The position numbers were made by a program, and so were the translations under genes. Positions 4,234-62,221 of a stretch of DNA of 64,000 nucleotides are shown here, one piece after another. Origin of the DNA: an uncultured Methanosarcinales archaeon (GTDB lineage Archaea > Nanobdellota > Nanobdellia > Woesearchaeales > JAHJBD01). Position 1 is the stretch's first letter, and the number at the start of each line of letters is the position of its first letter. The notes beneath the pieces were generated by a model that was not told where the DNA came from, searched no databases, and was given only the letters and a program-made list of their open reading frames with translations. The DNA lies in contig CAZHRT010000001.1 of assembly GCA_964534665.1 (NCBI GenBank), positions 605-64,604 of the forward strand, in the 5' to 3' direction.

Positions 4234-4318
4234 AATATAACTGAATTAAAAGAAATTTATAAATGTTATTGTGATAAATAACAATATTTATAAAATACAT
4301 TCTCCTACCCATCTTAAA

Positions 4319-4774
4319 ATGGAAATTAAAGATTTACAACCAAGACAAGGAAAAGTCGAAATAGTTTTAGAAGTAACTGAAAAAGGCGAAGTAAGAGAAT
4401 TCGAGAAATTCGGCAAAAAAGGTAAAGTTTGCAGCTGTAAAGCTAAAGATAACACCGGCGAGATTATCTTATCGTTATGGAATGAACAAGTTGATCAAGT
4501 GAAAACAGGCGACAAAGTCAAAGTTTCTAACGGTTATATAGGAGAATGGCAAGGCGAAAAACAACTCTCAACCGGTAAATTTGGAACTTTAGAAGTTGTT
4601 ACAGGAGAAACAGAAGATAAGCCAGAACCTGTTTATACAAATGTTCCACCTCAAGAAAGACCAGAAGAAAATCTAGGCCAAGAACTTGAACAAATGCAAA
4701 ACATTCCTGATCCAGAAATGCCAAAAGAACAACTTAGTGATGACGTTGTAAAAGATGAAGAATATATTGGCTAA
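4319..4774 (+). CDS. Single OB-fold ssDNA-binding protein (SSB/RPA-like) with acidic C-terminal tail
   Basis: GKVEIVLEVTEKGEVREF..GEIILSLWNEQVD..GDKVKVSNGYIGEWQGEKQLSTGKFG is a typical archaeal OB-fold SSB. The tail is acidic (DPEMPKEQLSDDVVKDEEYIG). ATG at 4319 is preferred over the GTG at 4271. Confidence 0.8.
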   Translation: MEIKDLQPRQGKVEIVLEVTEKGEVREFEKFGKKGKVCSCKAKDNTGEIILSLWNEQVDQVKTGDKVKVSNGYIGEWQGEKQLSTGKFGTLEVVTGETEDKPEPVYTNVPPQERPEENLGQELEQMQNIPDPEMPKEQLSDDVVKDEEYIG

Positions 4775-4803
4775 ACTTTTTCTTGTCAAGAACAATTGTT
4801 ATT

Positions 4804-4832
4804 AAGCATGCTCAGAAATGATATTTCTGACA
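4804..4832 (+). repeat. Copy 1 of the GCATGC-centred palindrome plus hairpin repeat
   Basis: AAGCATGCTCAGAAATGATATTTCTGACA. The hairpin is TCAGAAAT/ATTTCTGA (8 bp, 3-nt loop). The same motif and orientation occur at 14966 and 61579. Confidence 0.7.
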
Positions 4833-4879: not shown

Positions 4880-5025
4880 GGGACCTTAGCTCAGACCGGG
4901 AGAGCACACGTATGAAAATACGGTTCAGTACGCTGAAGTGAATTTTAGCAACTCGGTCACGTAGGGGAAGGATGTAACGAAAGGTGCATCCTCCTAAATC
5001 GCGGATTCAAATTCCGCAGGTCCCA
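4880..5025 (+). tRNA. tRNA gene with about 72 nt of extra internal sequence (intron or introns); isotype unresolved
   Basis: Acceptor GGGACCT/AGGTCCC, D arm GCTC-AGACCGGGA-GAGC, T arm GCGGA-TTCAAAT-TCCGC. 90 nt lie between the D stem and the variable region, where 18 are expected. A GAA anticodon is possible if CACGT(4907)/ACGTA(4959) is the anticodon stem, but I could not fold a clean BHB motif. Confidence 0.75.
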
Positions 5026-14856: not shown

Positions 14857-14965
14857 GTTCAAAATAATAGGACGATTCATATTTAAAGGTTTCGATTTGT
14901 CAAGAACCACAAGTCATAGACCAATAATACAAAGTGAAGCTTCATCTTTACTATATTAACAGTGG

Positions 14966-14998
14966 TTCTTGAGCATGCTCAGGAATATATTCCTTACA
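14966..14998 (+). repeat. Copy 2 of the GCATGC-centred palindrome plus hairpin repeat
   Basis: TTCTTGAGCATGCTCAGGAATATATTCCTTACA. The palindromic core is TGAGCATGCTCA and the downstream hairpin is AGGAAT/ATTCCT. Intergenic. Confidence 0.7.
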
Positions 14999-15046: not shown

Positions 15047-15613
15047 ATGATAAACAAACAAAATTTTGACAAAGTAAAAAATAACTTAGATAAATTTGAT
15101 AAGAAAAGAGAAGAATTAATCAAAACTTCAAGAGAAATTGTTAGAGAATCTAAAAAGATAATTTATTCCATTCATAGAAATGAAAAAGTATCAACTACTA
15201 AAATTAAAACCTCATTAAAGAGTCTTACAATTCTAGCAAAGAAAAATCCTAAACTATTATATTCAGGATCAGTTAAAATAGCTGTACAAGAATATGTTGA
15301 AGCTATTGCTTTCTTAGAGTTTAACAAAAGTGGTAAGATAATTCCATATAATCCAGAATTTATTGATGATGAATTCTATTTGCTTGGATTATGTGATTTA
15401 TCAGGAGAATTAGTTAGAAAAGCAGTTCAAGAAGGTATTAACAATAAAAATAAAGCTGTATTAAACATAAGAAAAGCAGTTGACGAATTATATTATAAAA
15501 TTCTAGAATTAGACCTAAGAAATGGCGAGCTAAGAAAAAAATCAGATGGTATTAAGTGGGATCTAAAGAAACTTGATGAGATGGTTTTTAGTTTAAAGCT
15601 TAGAATCCCATAA
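15047..15613 (+). CDS. Translin family protein
   Basis: AVQEYVEAIAFLEF, YLLGLCDLSGELVRKAV and LRKKSDGIKWDLKKLDEM match the conserved translin helical signature. Confidence 0.7.
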   Translation: MINKQNFDKVKNNLDKFDKKREELIKTSREIVRESKKIIYSIHRNEKVSTTKIKTSLKSLTILAKKNPKLLYSGSVKIAVQEYVEAIAFLEFNKSGKIIPYNPEFIDDEFYLLGLCDLSGELVRKAVQEGINNKNKAVLNIRKAVDELYYKILELDLRNGELRKKSDGIKWDLKKLDEMVFSLKLRIP

Positions 15614-15648: not shown

Positions 15649-17889
15649 ATGAAACGAACACACACCTGTGGAGAATTAGATGTTAAATCTGTTGATGAAA
15701 GAATAGTTCTAAATGGTTGGGTAAATTCAAGAAGAGACCATGGTGGAGTTATATTTATTGATCTAAGAGATAGATATGGCCTTACACAAGTAGTTTTCAA
15801 TCCTAAAAATAATAAAGTTAGTCATAAAGCGGCTGAAGATTTAAGAAGAGAAGATGTTGTTCATGTTGAAGGTGTTGTCAAAAAAAGAAGTGAAGGACTT
15901 GAAAATCCAAACCTTAAAACAGGTAAAATCGAAATTTTTGTTGAAAAACTTGAAGTTCTTAATAAAGCAGAAACACCACCAATAGAAATTGACGATCGTG
16001 TTGAAGTTAATGAAGATATTGCATTAAAATATCGTTATCTAGATTTAAGAAAAACAACTTTACAAAATAATTTATTGGTTAGACATAAAGCTGCAAAAAT
16101 TACAAGAGACTATTTTGATAGTTTAGGTTTTATTGAAATTGAAACACCAGTTCTAGCTAAATCCACACCAGAAGGTGCTAGAGATTATGTTGTACCATCT
16201 AGAGTAAACCCTGGTAAGTTTTTTGCTCTACCACAATCACCACAAATTTTCAAACAATTATTAATGGTATCAGGCTTTGATAGATATTTTCAAATTGTAA
16301 AATGCTTTAGAGATGAAGATTTAAGAGCTGACAGACAACCAGAATTTACCCAGATTGATGTAGAGATGAGCTTTATCGAAGAAGAAGACATCTATACAAC
16401 AATGGAAGGTCTTATGAAAGTTGTTTGGAAAGGAATCCTAAATATCGATATTAAATTACCTTTCAAAAGAATACCTTATGACGAAGCAATGGACAAATAT
16501 GGTTCAGATAAACCTGATTTAAGGTTTGAATTAGAATTAAAAGACATTACAAAGATTGCAGAAGGTTCTGGATTTAAAGTTTTTTCAGAAACAGCAAAAA
16601 ATGGCGGTTTGATTAAAGGTATTAATGTTAAAGGTGCAGCTGAACAATTTTCAAGGAAAAAAATTGATGAATTAATTCCATTTGTAAAAATTTATGGTGC
16701 AAAAGGTCTTGCTTGGATGAAATATGACGGTAAAAAACTAGAAAGTTCAATAATCAAGTTTTTTAGTGATGAAGATCAAGAAAACATAATAAAAACACTT
16801 GATGCAAAAGCAGGCGATTTATTAGTTTTTGTTGGAGACCTTAAATCATCAATAGTACATGCATCTTTAGGTAACCTAAGAATTAAATTAGCAAAACAAT
16901 TAGGATTAATTAATGAAAAAGAATATAATTTCTGCTGGGTAACTGATTTTCCTTTATTTGAATACAATGAAGAAGAAGCAAGACATCAAGCAATGCATCA
17001 CCCATTCACTTCTCCAAAAAAAGAAGACATGGAACTTTTAGAAAAGGATCCAACTAAAGTTAAAAGCATTGCATACGATCTTACACTTAACGGTGTAGAA
17101 GTTGGTGGCGGTTCAATAAGAATTCACAAAAGAGAAATACAAGAAAAAATGTTCAAAGCATTAGGAATATCACCAGAACAAGCACAAGAAAAGTTCGGAT
17201 TCCTTTTAGAAGCTTTCAAATATGGTGCTCCACCACACGGTGGTCTAGCTTTTGGTTTTGATAGATTATGTGCACTATTAGTTAACACAGAAAATATCAG
17301 AAATGTTATTGCATTCCCAAAAACAAAATCAGCTGAAAGTTTAATGGATGATGCACCTAGTTATATTGATGACAAACAACTAAAAGAATTACATATTAAA
17401 CTTGACATTGTTAAAATGCCAGCAAAAGATGAAGTTTTTCAAAAAATCATAGATGCATTAAACAAAGATAAAATTGAAATTGAGACAATTGAACATAAAG
17501 CAGTCTTTACTTCAAAAGAAGCAGCTGAAGTTCGAGGTACAAAACCTAGTCAAGGCGTTAAAGCATTAGTTTGTAAAACAGACAAAGGGTTTTTACAAGC
17601 ATGTGTTCCTGGCGATAAAGAAATTGATTTAGATAAACTTAAAAAAGTATTACAAAGAAAAAGTGTTGAACTAGCAGCCGCTGAAGACGTTAAAAGAGTT
17701 ACAGGTTGTAGTATAGGTTCTGTTCCACCTTTTGGAAACCTTTTTGGAATTGATATTCTAATTGATAGCAAAGTAACTGAAAATAAAGAAGTTGCTTTCA
17801 ACGCAGGTTCACACACAAAATCAATTAAGATGCAAGCAAAAGATTTAGTAAAAGTTACTGGCGCTAAAGTTGCTGAGTTCTCCAAATGA
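15649..17889 (+). CDS. aspS: Aspartyl-tRNA synthetase, bacterial long type, fused to a C-terminal YbaK/ProX-like deacylase domain
   Basis: RTHTCGEL..GWV..RRDHGGVIFIDLRDRYG, FRDEDLRADRQPEFTQID and GGGSIRIH..GAPPHGGLAFGFDRL are class IIb motifs, and there is a GAD-type insertion. Residues after ~585 (GVKALVCKTDKG..GCSIGSVPPFG..AFNAGSH) look like a YbaK/INS-family domain. Confidence 0.85.
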   Translation: MKRTHTCGELDVKSVDERIVLNGWVNSRRDHGGVIFIDLRDRYGLTQVVFNPKNNKVSHKAAEDLRREDVVHVEGVVKKRSEGLENPNLKTGKIEIFVEKLEVLNKAETPPIEIDDRVEVNEDIALKYRYLDLRKTTLQNNLLVRHKAAKITRDYFDSLGFIEIETPVLAKSTPEGARDYVVPSRVNPGKFFALPQSPQIFKQLLMVSGFDRYFQIVKCFRDEDLRADRQPEFTQIDVEMSFIEEEDIYTTMEGLMKVVWKGILNIDIKLPFKRIPYDEAMDKYGSDKPDLRFELELKDITKIAEGSGFKVFSETAKNGGLIKGINVKGAAEQFSRKKIDELIPFVKIYGAKGLAWMKYDGKKLESSIIKFFSDEDQENIIKTLDAKAGDLLVFVGDLKSSIVHASLGNLRIKLAKQLGLINEKEYNFCWVTDFPLFEYNEEEARHQAMHHPFTSPKKEDMELLEKDPTKVKSIAYDLTLNGVEVGGGSIRIHKREIQEKMFKALGISPEQAQEKFGFLLEAFKYGAPPHGGLAFGFDRLCALLVNTENIRNVIAFPKTKSAESLMDDAPSYIDDKQLKELHIKLDIVKMPAKDEVFQKIIDALNKDKIEIETIEHKAVFTSKEAAEVRGTKPSQGVKALVCKTDKGFLQACVPGDKEIDLDKLKKVLQRKSVELAAAEDVKRVTGCSIGSVPPFGNLFGIDILIDSKVTENKEVAFNAGSHTKSIKMQAKDLVKVTGAKVAEFSK

Positions 17890-60470: not shown

Positions 60471-61187
60471 ATGGAAGACTTAACAAAATTCGGACTTACC
60501 CCAAACGAATCAAAGATATACTTATTATTATTAGAAAAAAGAGAAGCAATTGCATCTGAAATTGCTAAAGACGTAGGCATTTCTAGGCCACATGTTTACG
60601 ATTCAATAAACAGGCTAATCAAAAAAGGCTTAGTATCATACGTAATCAAGAACAGCAAACGTTATTTTAAAGGTGCAAACCCAAAAGAATTAATTAATTA
60701 CCTTGAAGACGAAAAAGATAAGATTGACAGAAAGAAAAAAGAAGTAAGTAATCTTCTACCTAACTTACTAAAACTACAAAAAGAAAAAAAAGCAACAACT
60801 TCTGTTGAAGTTTACGAGGGAAAAGAAGGATTAAAAACTGTATTAATGGATTTAATAAATTATGAAAAAGATTTTGTTGCTTTTGGAGCAACAGGAAATT
60901 TCCCAAAAATCTTCCCAGTATTTTCCCAGATTTTTGTTAAAAGAAGAGAACAAAAAAAAATAAAAGGAAAAATTGTCGTTGTAAAAGGAGAAAAACCAAT
61001 TAAAACTAAACTTAATGATTACAGATGGATACCAAAAGAATATGGCCTTCCTAGTTCAACAATAATATATGGCAACAAAACAGCAATACTTATATGGACC
61101 GGAATAGGTATAATTATTAAAAGTAAAGAAGTTGCTGACTCATACAGAAGTTACTTTGAATTGTTATGGAAGATTGGAAAAAAATGA
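60471..61187 (+). CDS. TrmB-family transcriptional regulator
   Basis: The N-terminal wHTH is FGLTPNESKIYLLLLEKREAIASEIAKDVGISRPHVYDSINRLIKKGLV, followed by a TrmB-type C-terminal domain. Confidence 0.8.
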   Translation: MEDLTKFGLTPNESKIYLLLLEKREAIASEIAKDVGISRPHVYDSINRLIKKGLVSYVIKNSKRYFKGANPKELINYLEDEKDKIDRKKKEVSNLLPNLLKLQKEKKATTSVEVYEGKEGLKTVLMDLINYEKDFVAFGATGNFPKIFPVFSQIFVKRREQKKIKGKIVVVKGEKPIKTKLNDYRWIPKEYGLPSSTIIYGNKTAILIWTGIGIIIKSKEVADSYRSYFELLWKIGKK

Positions 61188-61390
61188 AAATATACTTACT
61201 AATTTTAATATTACTAATTGGCTGCAACAGTATTAACACAGAAGAAAGTTGTGATACAGAAGATGTTTGTAAACCACCAACAATTAATGAAAATGTTGCT
61301 TCTAGTGCAAAAGAAGATATGATTAACAACTCTAAATTATGTAATAATACTATTTCTAAAGAATGCGAAGTGATTCAACCAAATTTATAA
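61166..61390 (+). CDS. Small putative lipoprotein, 74 aa
   Basis: The lipobox-like sequence is LILILLIGCNS. Cys-rich and short. Overlaps the trmB-like gene end. Confidence 0.4.
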   Translation: MEDWKKMKIYLLILILLIGCNSINTEESCDTEDVCKPPTINENVASSAKEDMINNSKLCNNTISKECEVIQPNL

Positions 61391-61647
61391 TATTTCTTTA
61401 TTGGCTTAGTAATATTCCAAGTACATTTTAACCCTTGTTCAAAAATTACTAAGTCCCCTACACCAAAACTAATTTTATCACCAGTTGAAGAAATAACTTC
61501 AGCTTCACCCTCAATAATTAAACAGGTTTCCTTATCTGAATATTCCCATGGAAATTCAGAAATGTCGGAAATCGAAGATTTCTGAGCATGCTCAGAAACG
61601 CTTTACGTTTCTGACACTTCTTTCTCCCAAATAGACAACTGTTCCAT
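61375..61647 (-). pseudogene. Small cupin (Cupin_3/DUF861-like) gene interrupted by a 54-nt insertion carrying an in-frame TAA
   Basis: The hand translation is MEQLSIWEKEVSE[T*SVSEHAQKSSISDISE]FPWEYSDKETCLIIEGEAEVISSTGDKISFGVGDLVIFEQGLKCTWNITKPIKKYYKFG. Without the bracketed 18 codons it matches the family spacing W-E-x-E-x-x-x-F-x-W-x-Y. Confidence 0.7.
61555..61616 (+). repeat. Copy 3 of the GCATGC-centred palindrome repeat (inserted in the cupin gene)
   Basis: TTTCTGAGCATGCTCAGAAA is a perfect 20-nt palindrome, flanked by further TCAGAAA/TTTCTGA arms. The downstream hairpin is TCAGAAACG-CTTTA-CGTTTCTGA. Confidence 0.75.
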
Positions 61648-61723
61648 CTCTTTTCTTTCTTCTTCAGTTGCTTTATGAGTTCTTAGTAAAACCTTTGGTT
61701 TTTCTAACCCTTCCTGATGATTA

Positions 61724-62221
61724 TCAGGAAGTTCCATTATTTCCTCTTGAAATTGCAGTAACACCAGTTCTAGAAATATCTTGTATACCATACCCTTTAA
61801 CAATCTCAATAAAACTATCAATTTTATCAGGAGTTCCAATTATTTCTAATGTCATTGACTTAGGATCAACATCTACAAACTTAACTTTATAGATCTTTGA
61901 ATAATTAAGCAGTTCATCTTTAGATTTCTTATCCTTAGCAGCAACCTTAATCAAACAAAGTTCTCTAATAACAGAACCTTTATCCATTTCACTTACTTTA
62001 ACAGTATCTATTAACTTATTCAACTGCTTTTCAACCTGCTCAATAATTGAATCATCACCAATAACAGTGATAACCATCTTACTTATTCCTTTTTTATTTG
62101 TTTTTCCAACAGTTATTGTATCAATATTATAATTACGTCTAGCAAACATTCCAGCTATTCTAGTTAAAACACCTGGTTGATCTTCAACTAACATTGATAT
62201 TACGTGTTTATGTTGTGCCAT
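61724..62221 (-). CDS. ilvN: Acetolactate synthase small (regulatory) subunit
   Basis: The ACT domain reads ISMLVEDQPGVLTRIAGMFARRNYNIDTITVG, and the gene lies downstream of ilvB. Confidence 0.9.
   Translation of the reverse strand: MAQHKHVISMLVEDQPGVLTRIAGMFARRNYNIDTITVGKTNKKGISKMVITVIGDDSIIEQVEKQLNKLIDTVKVSEMDKGSVIRELCLIKVAAKDKKSKDELLNYSKIYKVKFVDVDPKSMTLEIIGTPDKIDSFIEIVKGYGIQDISRTGVTAISRGNNGTS

Follow-up and report, generated by a model that had tools for sequence, protein, structure and literature searches.

A palindromic double-hairpin element, very probably mobile, interrupts a cupin gene and recurs in DPANN archaea

Inserts of about 50 nt that bring a stop codon and a hairpin into coding sequence are found in phage T4 gene 60 and as the mitochondrial 'byps' of Magnusiomyces. 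Rickettsia palindromic elements (RPEs) are palindromic inserts that lie in frame in unrelated genes (Ogata et al. 2000, as summarised in PMC10969869), and the hairpin of repetitive extragenic palindromic (REP) sequences and of the REP doublets known as REPINs is marked by a conserved GTAG (or CGTC) tag at one end (PMC3733652). A census of MITEs, transposable elements of miniature size with inverted repeats, placed one Woesearchaea genome among the archaea of highest MITE density, with 105 per Mb, and does not describe the palindromic family treated here (PMC11602168). We analyzed a 64,000-nt stretch of contig CAZHRT010000001.1 from an uncultured archaeon (hereafter the window), in which a 54-nt palindrome interrupts a gene of the cupin superfamily. 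The evidence makes it very probable that this palindrome is a non-autonomous, double-hairpin mobile element that inserted in the Cupin_3 coding sequence, and that its family spans DPANN archaea. Coordinates are collected in Table 1.

Read on the minus strand, the cupin gene runs ...MEQLSIWEKEVSET-stop-SVSEHAQKSSISDISEFPWEY...KFG-stop. Eighteen extra codons split its open reading frame (ORF) after ...WEKEVSE, and codon 2 of the 18 is TAA (61605-61603). Once the 54 nt are deleted, the translated gene matches Pfam Cupin_3 (PF05899) contiguously, residues 3-69 aligning with profile positions 8-74 (70.8 bits). With the insert in place only the C-terminal part of the protein is matched (60.6 bits), and the N-terminal strand W-E-x-E-x-S-x-F-P-W-x-Y of the profile is matched only after the deletion. 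The initial annotation of this DNA had claimed a 54-nt palindromic insert with an in-frame stop, whose removal restores the cupin family motif, and both claims are confirmed. Contigs retrieved by exact-protein look-up of the neighboring IlvN came from five samples and three sources; the five are 100% identical across 381 nt, including the insert and the TAA. The insert is fixed in all contigs sampled, and the truncated product of 44 residues is recorded on 17 contigs. The possibility of an assembly error, raised in the same annotation, was checked on assemblies, and five independent ones agree on the stop.

A search with the restored cupin protein as query returned 149 homologues within the E-value cut-off, those listed being 72-101 residues long, and WEKEVS(E/S)FPWEY or a close variant was unbroken in 10/10 homologues inspected. 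The best homologue, P0001 (84% protein identity), sits in a syntenic ilvB-ilvN-cupin locus, L006. When the two DNA sequences were aligned, a single clean 54-nt gap appeared: the window reads GAAG[TGTCAGAAACG...TTTCCGACA]TTTCTGAATTT and L006 reads GAAG/TTTCTTCTTTT, with GAAG/TTTCTTCT at the orthologue's junction. Exactly 54 nt were added, the junction is ambiguous by at most 1 nt (T) rather than by the 3 nt first supposed, and no target-site duplication was found in this empty-site comparison with L006. Because of the orthologue alignment and the family consensus, the element is placed at 61563-61616 and not, as originally annotated, at 61555-61608. The comparison with orthologues that had been proposed as a check therefore favors an insertion, the 18 codons being absent from L006 and from all ten inspected homologues. 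Divergence from the L006 lineage corresponds to about 0.4-0.65 synonymous substitutions per site (dS); the insertion is younger than that split, and 'very recent', as it was first called, applies only in a relative sense.

For the cupin gene the most likely start is ATG 61737, which makes it overlap ilvN; this start is preferred over the previously chosen 61647 because the gene calls on five independent assemblies use it. The present product is a 44-aa fragment. TAA closes 40/60 long ORFs of the window and is therefore a genuine stop in this genome; reassignment of the codon is ruled out on the same count. No in-frame ATG, GTG or TTG was found downstream of the TAA in the cupin, ruling out translation restart past the stop. 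Judged from its sequence, the cupin has most likely become a pseudogene recently, because the gene ends at 44 residues and the C-terminal barrel lacks a start codon of its own. The ratio of nonsynonymous to synonymous divergence (dN/dS) from L006 is 0.20 for the cupin and 0.06-0.09 for ilvN, ilvB and the TrmB-family gene. The cupin value therefore indicates purifying selection over most of the divergence, consistent with recent loss.

The element begins and ends with TGTCAGAAA and TTTCCGACA, giving TG...CA ends, and its 54 nt with terminal inverted repeats leave no space for a transposase gene. Its two hairpins, each 21-23 nt long, form an inverted pair on either side of GCATGC; the linker variants TCATGA and ACATGA occur in other family copies. 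Three of the four arms originally described around GCATGC belong to the element. The supposed fourth, TTTCTGA at 61556-61562, is native to the gene and fits a weak flank preference, TGACA/TnTCARAA, and the true fourth arm is TTTCCGA at 61565-61571. A covariance model trained on 38 relatives fits 61563-61616 end to end (76.6 bits). Among the 38 distinct 54-nt copies, 98.9% of alignment cells pair and compensatory double changes occur in 8/19 pairs, values reached by 0/500 shuffles and approached by no slid register; the hairpin 1 helix is 99.2% paired, with compensatory changes in 4/10 pairs. Across 89 unique elements, drawn from the genome-scan loci described below and the window, the first 10 stem pairs are 97% Watson-Crick. 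Counts of G.T against A.C were made on unoriented copies and are uninformative.

Two further copies lie in the window. The 20-nt palindrome TTTCTGAGCATGCTCAGAAA and its near-copies at 4799 and 14966 number 3 against 0.01 expected from shuffles, so the perfect palindrome is not a chance occurrence, and hairpins of the form TCAGAAA-N-TTTCTGA number 3 against 0.08 expected. The covariance model, run filter-free across all 64 kb, found three sites only: 61563-61616 (76.6 bits), 4784-4832 (44.5 bits) and 14954-14998 (22.2 bits). The last two substantiate the kinship that had been proposed with repeats at 4804 and 14966. In the copy at 14898-14998, the 22.2 bits cover the core and second hairpin; a 51-nt insert (14911-14961) occupies the first hairpin, the right terminus is degenerate (TTCCTTACA), and a compensatory AGGAAT/ATTCCT change is present.

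Beyond the window, we scanned one genome per species with a degenerate 20-mer spanning the three window copies, which yielded at least 118 loci, and metagenomes with the perfect 20-mer, which yielded 101. Complete elements with both termini made up 87/118 of the genome matches listed and were present in 81/101 metagenome loci. In total, at least about 170 complete copies were found, all in metagenome-assembled genomes (MAGs) of DPANN archaea or in metagenomes, and the termini TGTCAGAAA and TTTCYGACA are common to them. No bacterial record was present among the 87 complete genome-scan elements (among the matches listed), and 17 bacterial pattern matches were dismissed as chance because the element termini were absent. 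Host records are labelled Woesearchaeota, Pacearchaeota, Nanoarchaeota/Nanoarchaeia, Aenigmatarchaeota (one MAG), 'archaeon' and (binchicken) 'Methanosarcinales', and the host loci have a G+C content (GC) of between 28 and 55%. The repeat family that had been recognized within the window is thus real but is not private to this genome, being spread over DPANN archaea. The DPANN-type element is present in many of the fetched loci whose label is 'uncultured Methanosarcinales archaeon' (binchicken / TPA), and on such DPANN-like small contigs the 'Methanosarcinales' label looks like a placeholder or misassignment.

In consensus form the family reads (A)TG-TCARRAA[stem-loop]TTYYTGA-(N)CATG(N)-TCARRAA[stem-loop]TTYYTGA-CA(T). 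Element lengths cluster at about 54, 111 and 153 nt, size classes that arise because either hairpin can hold nested hairpins. No element match was found in viral contigs (IMG/VR), and neither the window nor 18 loci gave an Rfam match at the gathering score, E-value mode showing sub-threshold noise only. An oriented RNA element was ruled out by the lack of orientation bias toward gene starts or ends. C/D-box, H/ACA and hammerhead RNAs, integron attC sites and hix-like sites were dropped, their box sequences or geometry not fitting. Our literature search returned no description of this palindromic family, which appears to be undescribed so far.

Three of the six reading frames of the subfamily consensus are open, yet all convincing in-gene copies share a single frame, a stop-free multiple of three that encodes ...(M)SETQSVSEHAQKSSISD.... 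At least six independent in-gene copies, 54, 60 or 168 nt long, use this frame (Table 1), and the insert in uL3 falls where length varies among solved archaeal uL3 structures. The conserved reading frame argues that such copies are translated rather than spliced out. Orientation and frame of the cupin copy are identical to those of the stop-free in-gene copies. Its closest relatives read CGCAAAGCG and ...TTTCTGACA, compared with CGTAAAGCG and ...TTTCCGACA in the window. The T at 61605 is a C in these relatives, giving CAA (Gln) instead of TAA, and the stop is private to the cupin copy, not inherent to the element. Each of the two private changes weakens a pair of a hairpin, producing U.G at 12:16 and, at 34:50, the only A.C among the 38 distinct copies, so that the cupin copy alone is unpaired at that position.

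The distribution of copies bears on mobility. The Woesearchaeota MAG JACQXV01 contains at least 6 copies of a ~210-nt composite centered on the element, with 83-100% identity (L017, L021, L038, L065, L113 and L121; the composite is also seen in L095). Elsewhere, copies sit nested within other copies of the family or within the core or an arm of different palindromic repeats, and tandem junctions of the type ...TGACATGTCA... occur. In L142, L145, L159, L165, L173, L214, L216 and others, the 54-nt element lies inside one arm of a second palindromic repeat, with the layout ...CCACTCAAT/element/CGGCGTGGRGC...hairpin...CCCCRCSG..ATTGAGKSG. The outer flanks of this composite are unrelated, and therefore the composite itself has been dispersed. 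Some loci that seemed orthologous and to show compensatory change proved to be this kind of larger composite repeat, with unrelated outer flanks, and were set aside. A second disrupted gene encodes an HNH endonuclease on the Woesearchaeota chromosome OY970338.1, where a frame-shifting copy of 163 nt (L072 174-336) breaks the gene and its deletion restores ...GEIAH/IKGRHK....

No flanking direct repeats were seen among the printed flanks of copies in the fetched loci, and the flank profile (180 ends of 90 elements) revealed only the weak shared preference TGACA/TnTCARAA. Most copies are intergenic, without orientation bias relative to genes, and their neighbors are ordinary housekeeping genes, e.g. 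gyrA, glmS and the gene of the CCA-adding enzyme, none of them common to the copies. Among ~220 fetched loci, each 15 kb or shorter, none showed an autonomous partner in the form of a long element with matching ends. A motif scan of the 1798 ORFs of these loci detected no REP-associated tyrosine transposase (RAYT) or IS200-TnpA-like protein, and serine-recombinase motifs were likewise not found in them. Two XerA-like tyrosine recombinases, 1.7 and 7 kb away, are unassociated with the element.

We propose that the element entered the cupin gene between bases 1 and 2 of the Val codon in WEKE-V-SEFPWEY, leaving the target unduplicated. Its orientation and frame on landing would have been those that make the 54-nt form an open module of 18 codons with a hydrophilic product (...SETQSVSEHAQKSSISD...), so that an in-frame, stop-free insertion came first and interrupted the cupin within its first conserved strand. 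A subsequent C-to-T change would have turned the Gln codon CAA into TAA, ending the product after 44 residues, and a T-to-C change would have broken a pair in hairpin 2; both private substitutions would then postdate the insertion. Mobilization presumably occurred in trans, by an enzyme recognizing the hairpins or arm sequences.

Compared with described systems, the family resembles RPEs in placing short palindromic repeats in frame in unrelated genes, where they add a conserved peptide module, and in having further, intergenic copies. It differs in host (DPANN archaea versus Rickettsia), in basic unit (54 nt versus about 100-150 nt) and in layout, a double hairpin around a CATG linker with no CGTC tag. 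Judged by hosts, tag and layout, without a direct alignment, it belongs neither to RPE-1 to RPE-10, to which no sequence relationship was seen, nor to the CGTC-tagged repeats of alpha-proteobacteria, and the module of the window copy carries a stop codon. With REP sequences, bacterial interspersed mosaic elements (BIMEs) and REPINs, which are mobilized by RAYTs whose genes typically have REPs on their flanks, it shares hairpin units of 20-40 nt that form inverted doublets and sometimes arrays. REP sequences too are mostly extragenic and occasionally in genes, make no target duplication and keep their stems by compensatory change. However, they are bacterial and the present family is archaeal, with TG...CA ends, CATG-containing linkers and no GTAG or CGTC in its consensus; its hairpin loops take nested inserts, which produce the classes of ~54, 111 and 153 nt, and no RAYT or IS200-type gene was found near copies in the fetched loci. 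Classical MITEs, which derive from DDE transposons and include Correia elements and those of Sulfolobus and haloarchaea (PMC10969869, PMC11602168), are similarly small, multi-copy and devoid of transposase, have terminal inverted repeats, can inactivate genes and differ in presence or absence between relatives. Membership in that class fails on the missing target-site duplication; in addition, no autonomous partner with the same ends was found in the ~220 fetched loci, and the family is conserved phylum-wide rather than taxon-specific. Because target sites are not duplicated, we regard the family as closer to the REP/REPIN/RPE type than to classical MITEs. The original suggestion of a MITE- or REP-like insertion accordingly survives as a mobile palindromic insertion of REP/REPIN/RPE-like character, but not as a classical MITE. 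From the bypassing elements of T4 and Magnusiomyces the cupin copy differs in lacking their take-off and landing codon geometry and in having a stop that the rest of the family does not keep.

Other explanations of the 54 nt have to be weighed against a mobile insertion. If the 54 nt were an archaeal intron of bulge-helix-bulge type, excised by the tRNA splicing endonuclease, the cupin could still be made. This would suit a host that is archaeal by the signal recognition particle (SRP) RNA in the window, a window that also has a tRNA gene with a long intron, a reading frame exactly restored by deleting the 54 nt, and a cupin gene that is otherwise undamaged. We consider splicing very unlikely, since both junctions fall within a continuous helix in the minimum-free-energy and centroid structures of the mRNA-sense fold (-33.3 kcal/mol, z = -4.2), and the predicted fold lacks two 3-nt bulges spaced by a 4-bp helix. 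Flank geometries also differ between the gene-disrupting copies in cupin and HNH, most copies are intergenic and unbiased in orientation relative to genes, and the in-gene copies elsewhere stay multiple-of-three and stop-free in one frame, which would be needless if they were spliced. Full-length cupin, with or without the 18 residues, could also result if the stop were read through or bypassed by hopping as in gene 60. The gap in T4 gene 60 is 50 nt, near the 54 nt seen here, the stop sits in a stable hairpin, and GAA codons occur near both junctions. The sequence, however, is GAA ACG TAA: GAA is not adjacent to the stop, for the pre-stop codon ACG the 3' junction offers no ACN in frame on which to land, and the sole nearby ACA would land out of frame. 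As TAA is also the main terminator in this genome and is private to the cupin copy, with no conserved signal, we judge bypass or readthrough to be extremely unlikely. We give next to no probability to an artefact of sequencing or assembly, e.g. a palindrome-induced misassembly, as the source of the stop or of the entire insert; palindromes can cause chimeric assemblies, but here five assemblies made with different pipelines from five samples agree base for base, and the truncated product recurs on 17 contigs.

A further view is that the repeats are host cis-elements, either sites for a DNA-binding or chromosome-organizing protein or a structured RNA, and that the cupin copy is an accidental duplication. 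Orthologous sites that differ in presence or absence, near-identical copies at unrelated loci of one genome, nested copies and copies inside unrelated coding genes make this improbable, and there is no orientation bias, no common neighbor gene and no Rfam match to support it. It does have in its favor a 20-bp core kept phylum-wide across 28-55% GC, a low to moderate copy number per genome, the many copies that adjoin gene starts and the strong hairpin covariation. Bacterial BIMEs contain sites for integration host factor and gyrase, a precedent for a host role, and such a role for some copies would be compatible with mobility. Several points do weigh against the mobile-element reading as we have set it out. 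The ~200 fetched loci searched yielded no transposase or recombinase as a partner, so that mobility is deduced from the distribution of copies; the core is kept phylum-wide over a broad GC range, which is unusual for selfish MITEs, and a host function could account for this. The order in which the insert came first and the stop later is likewise deduced, because neither the exact uninterrupted allele nor the exact CAA allele was found in a collection of 15 billion proteins. Residual cupin function might conceivably persist through rare readthrough.

Several neighboring genes deserve mention. A convergent ORF of 74 aa (61166-61390, plus strand), whose N-terminus (MKIYLLILILLIGC...) resembles that of a lipoprotein, shares ~16 nt with the 3' end of the cupin. 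The family copy at 4784-4832 adjoins a gene for an OB-fold protein resembling single-stranded DNA-binding protein (SSB; 4271-4774, plus strand) and lies ~50 nt upstream of a tRNA gene (4880-5025, plus strand). In the latter, an 88-nt stretch in place of the anticodon arm region represents at least one long intron; this gene escaped ARAGORN and the Rfam scan at default settings and was detected, at 36.2 bits, with permissive filters only. The copy at 14898-14998 adjoins a Translin-family gene (15047-15613, plus strand). An aspartyl-tRNA synthetase gene (15649-17889, plus strand) is of bacterial type, with a GAD domain and a C-terminal YbaK-like tRNA_edit fusion, an unusual architecture for an archaeon.

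Table 1 Features of the cupin locus and family copies in the window and in genes of other loci
Feature	Locus	Coordinates	Strand	Remarks
Interrupted cupin gene (Cupin_3 / DUF861)	window	61375..61737	minus	final gene of ilvB-ilvN-cupin unit
54-nt double-hairpin palindromic element TGTCAGAAACGTAAAGCGTTTCTGAGCATGCTCAGAAATCTTCGATTTCCGACA	window	61563..61616	minus	from L006 gap and covariance model
Hairpin 1: TCAGAAACG-TAAAG-CGTTTCTGA	window	61592..61614	minus	family pair 12:16 is U.G in cupin copy
In-frame TAA stop	window	61603..61605	minus	within hairpin 1 of the element
Central GCATGC linker with family CATG core	window	61586..61591		invariant in alignment A3
Hairpin 2: TCAGAAATC-TTC-GATTTCCGA	window	61565..61585	minus	C at 61567 (consensus T) gives A.C mismatch
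Native TTTCTGA (in GTT TCT GAA = V S E) adjoining element	window	61556..61562	minus	from orthologue alignment
49-nt family copy, degenerate first hairpin	window	4784..4832	plus	intergenic, between SSB-like gene and intron-containing tRNA gene
101-nt family copy	window	14898..14998	plus	divergent intergenic region upstream of Translin-family gene
In-gene copy, uL3	L205	519-572		54 nt, in frame, stop-free
In-gene copy, S3Ae	L132; also L225	8238-8291 (L132)		54 nt (L132), in frame, stop-free
In-gene copy, apparently orthologous K/E-rich tail	L183			fragment without S3Ae domain
In-gene copy, L31e	L134	243-296		54 nt, in frame, stop-free
In-gene copy, DUF371 protein	L100; L169	7555-7608; 804-857		54 nt, open
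In-gene copy, DUF371 protein	L151	2698-2865		nested 168-nt version, same site as in the orthologous genes of L100/L169, in frame, open
In-gene copy, unnamed protein	L164			60 nt

The disruption of the cupin is in itself ordinary. It accounts for the truncated gene call, a 44-aa 'hypothetical' following ilvN, and the last gene of the ilvB-ilvN-cupin unit is likely inactive in this population; peptides spanning WEKEVSEFPWEY in this organism would contradict that inactivation. As to the family as a whole, we lean, by somewhat more than even chances, toward an undescribed double-hairpin selfish family across DPANN archaea that inserts an 18-residue hydrophilic module in a single permissive frame, even in uL3, S3Ae (eS1) and L31e (eL31). 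It would be an archaeal counterpart of RPEs, moved without target duplication by a phylum-conserved enzyme that recognizes the hairpins or arms. The family decorates essential ribosomal proteins in DPANN archaea, and a tryptic-size peptide (…VSEHAQK) allows translation of the insert to be tested directly by metaproteomics. Stop-to-stop ORFs cross intergenic copies in L007, L048, L062 and L016, creating spurious N-terminal extensions (...FLSMLKN..., ...EHAQK...), and ORFs that read through elements probably cause start codons to be mis-called in DPANN MAGs. The 20-bp core offers a handy lineage marker, the complete elements found all lying in DPANN-labelled archaeal MAGs. Finally, the family is conserved over a taxonomic and GC range much broader than is usual for MITEs. 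This suggests that a trans-acting protein is conserved as well, which may be a recombinase or transposase of a new, hairpin-specific kind.

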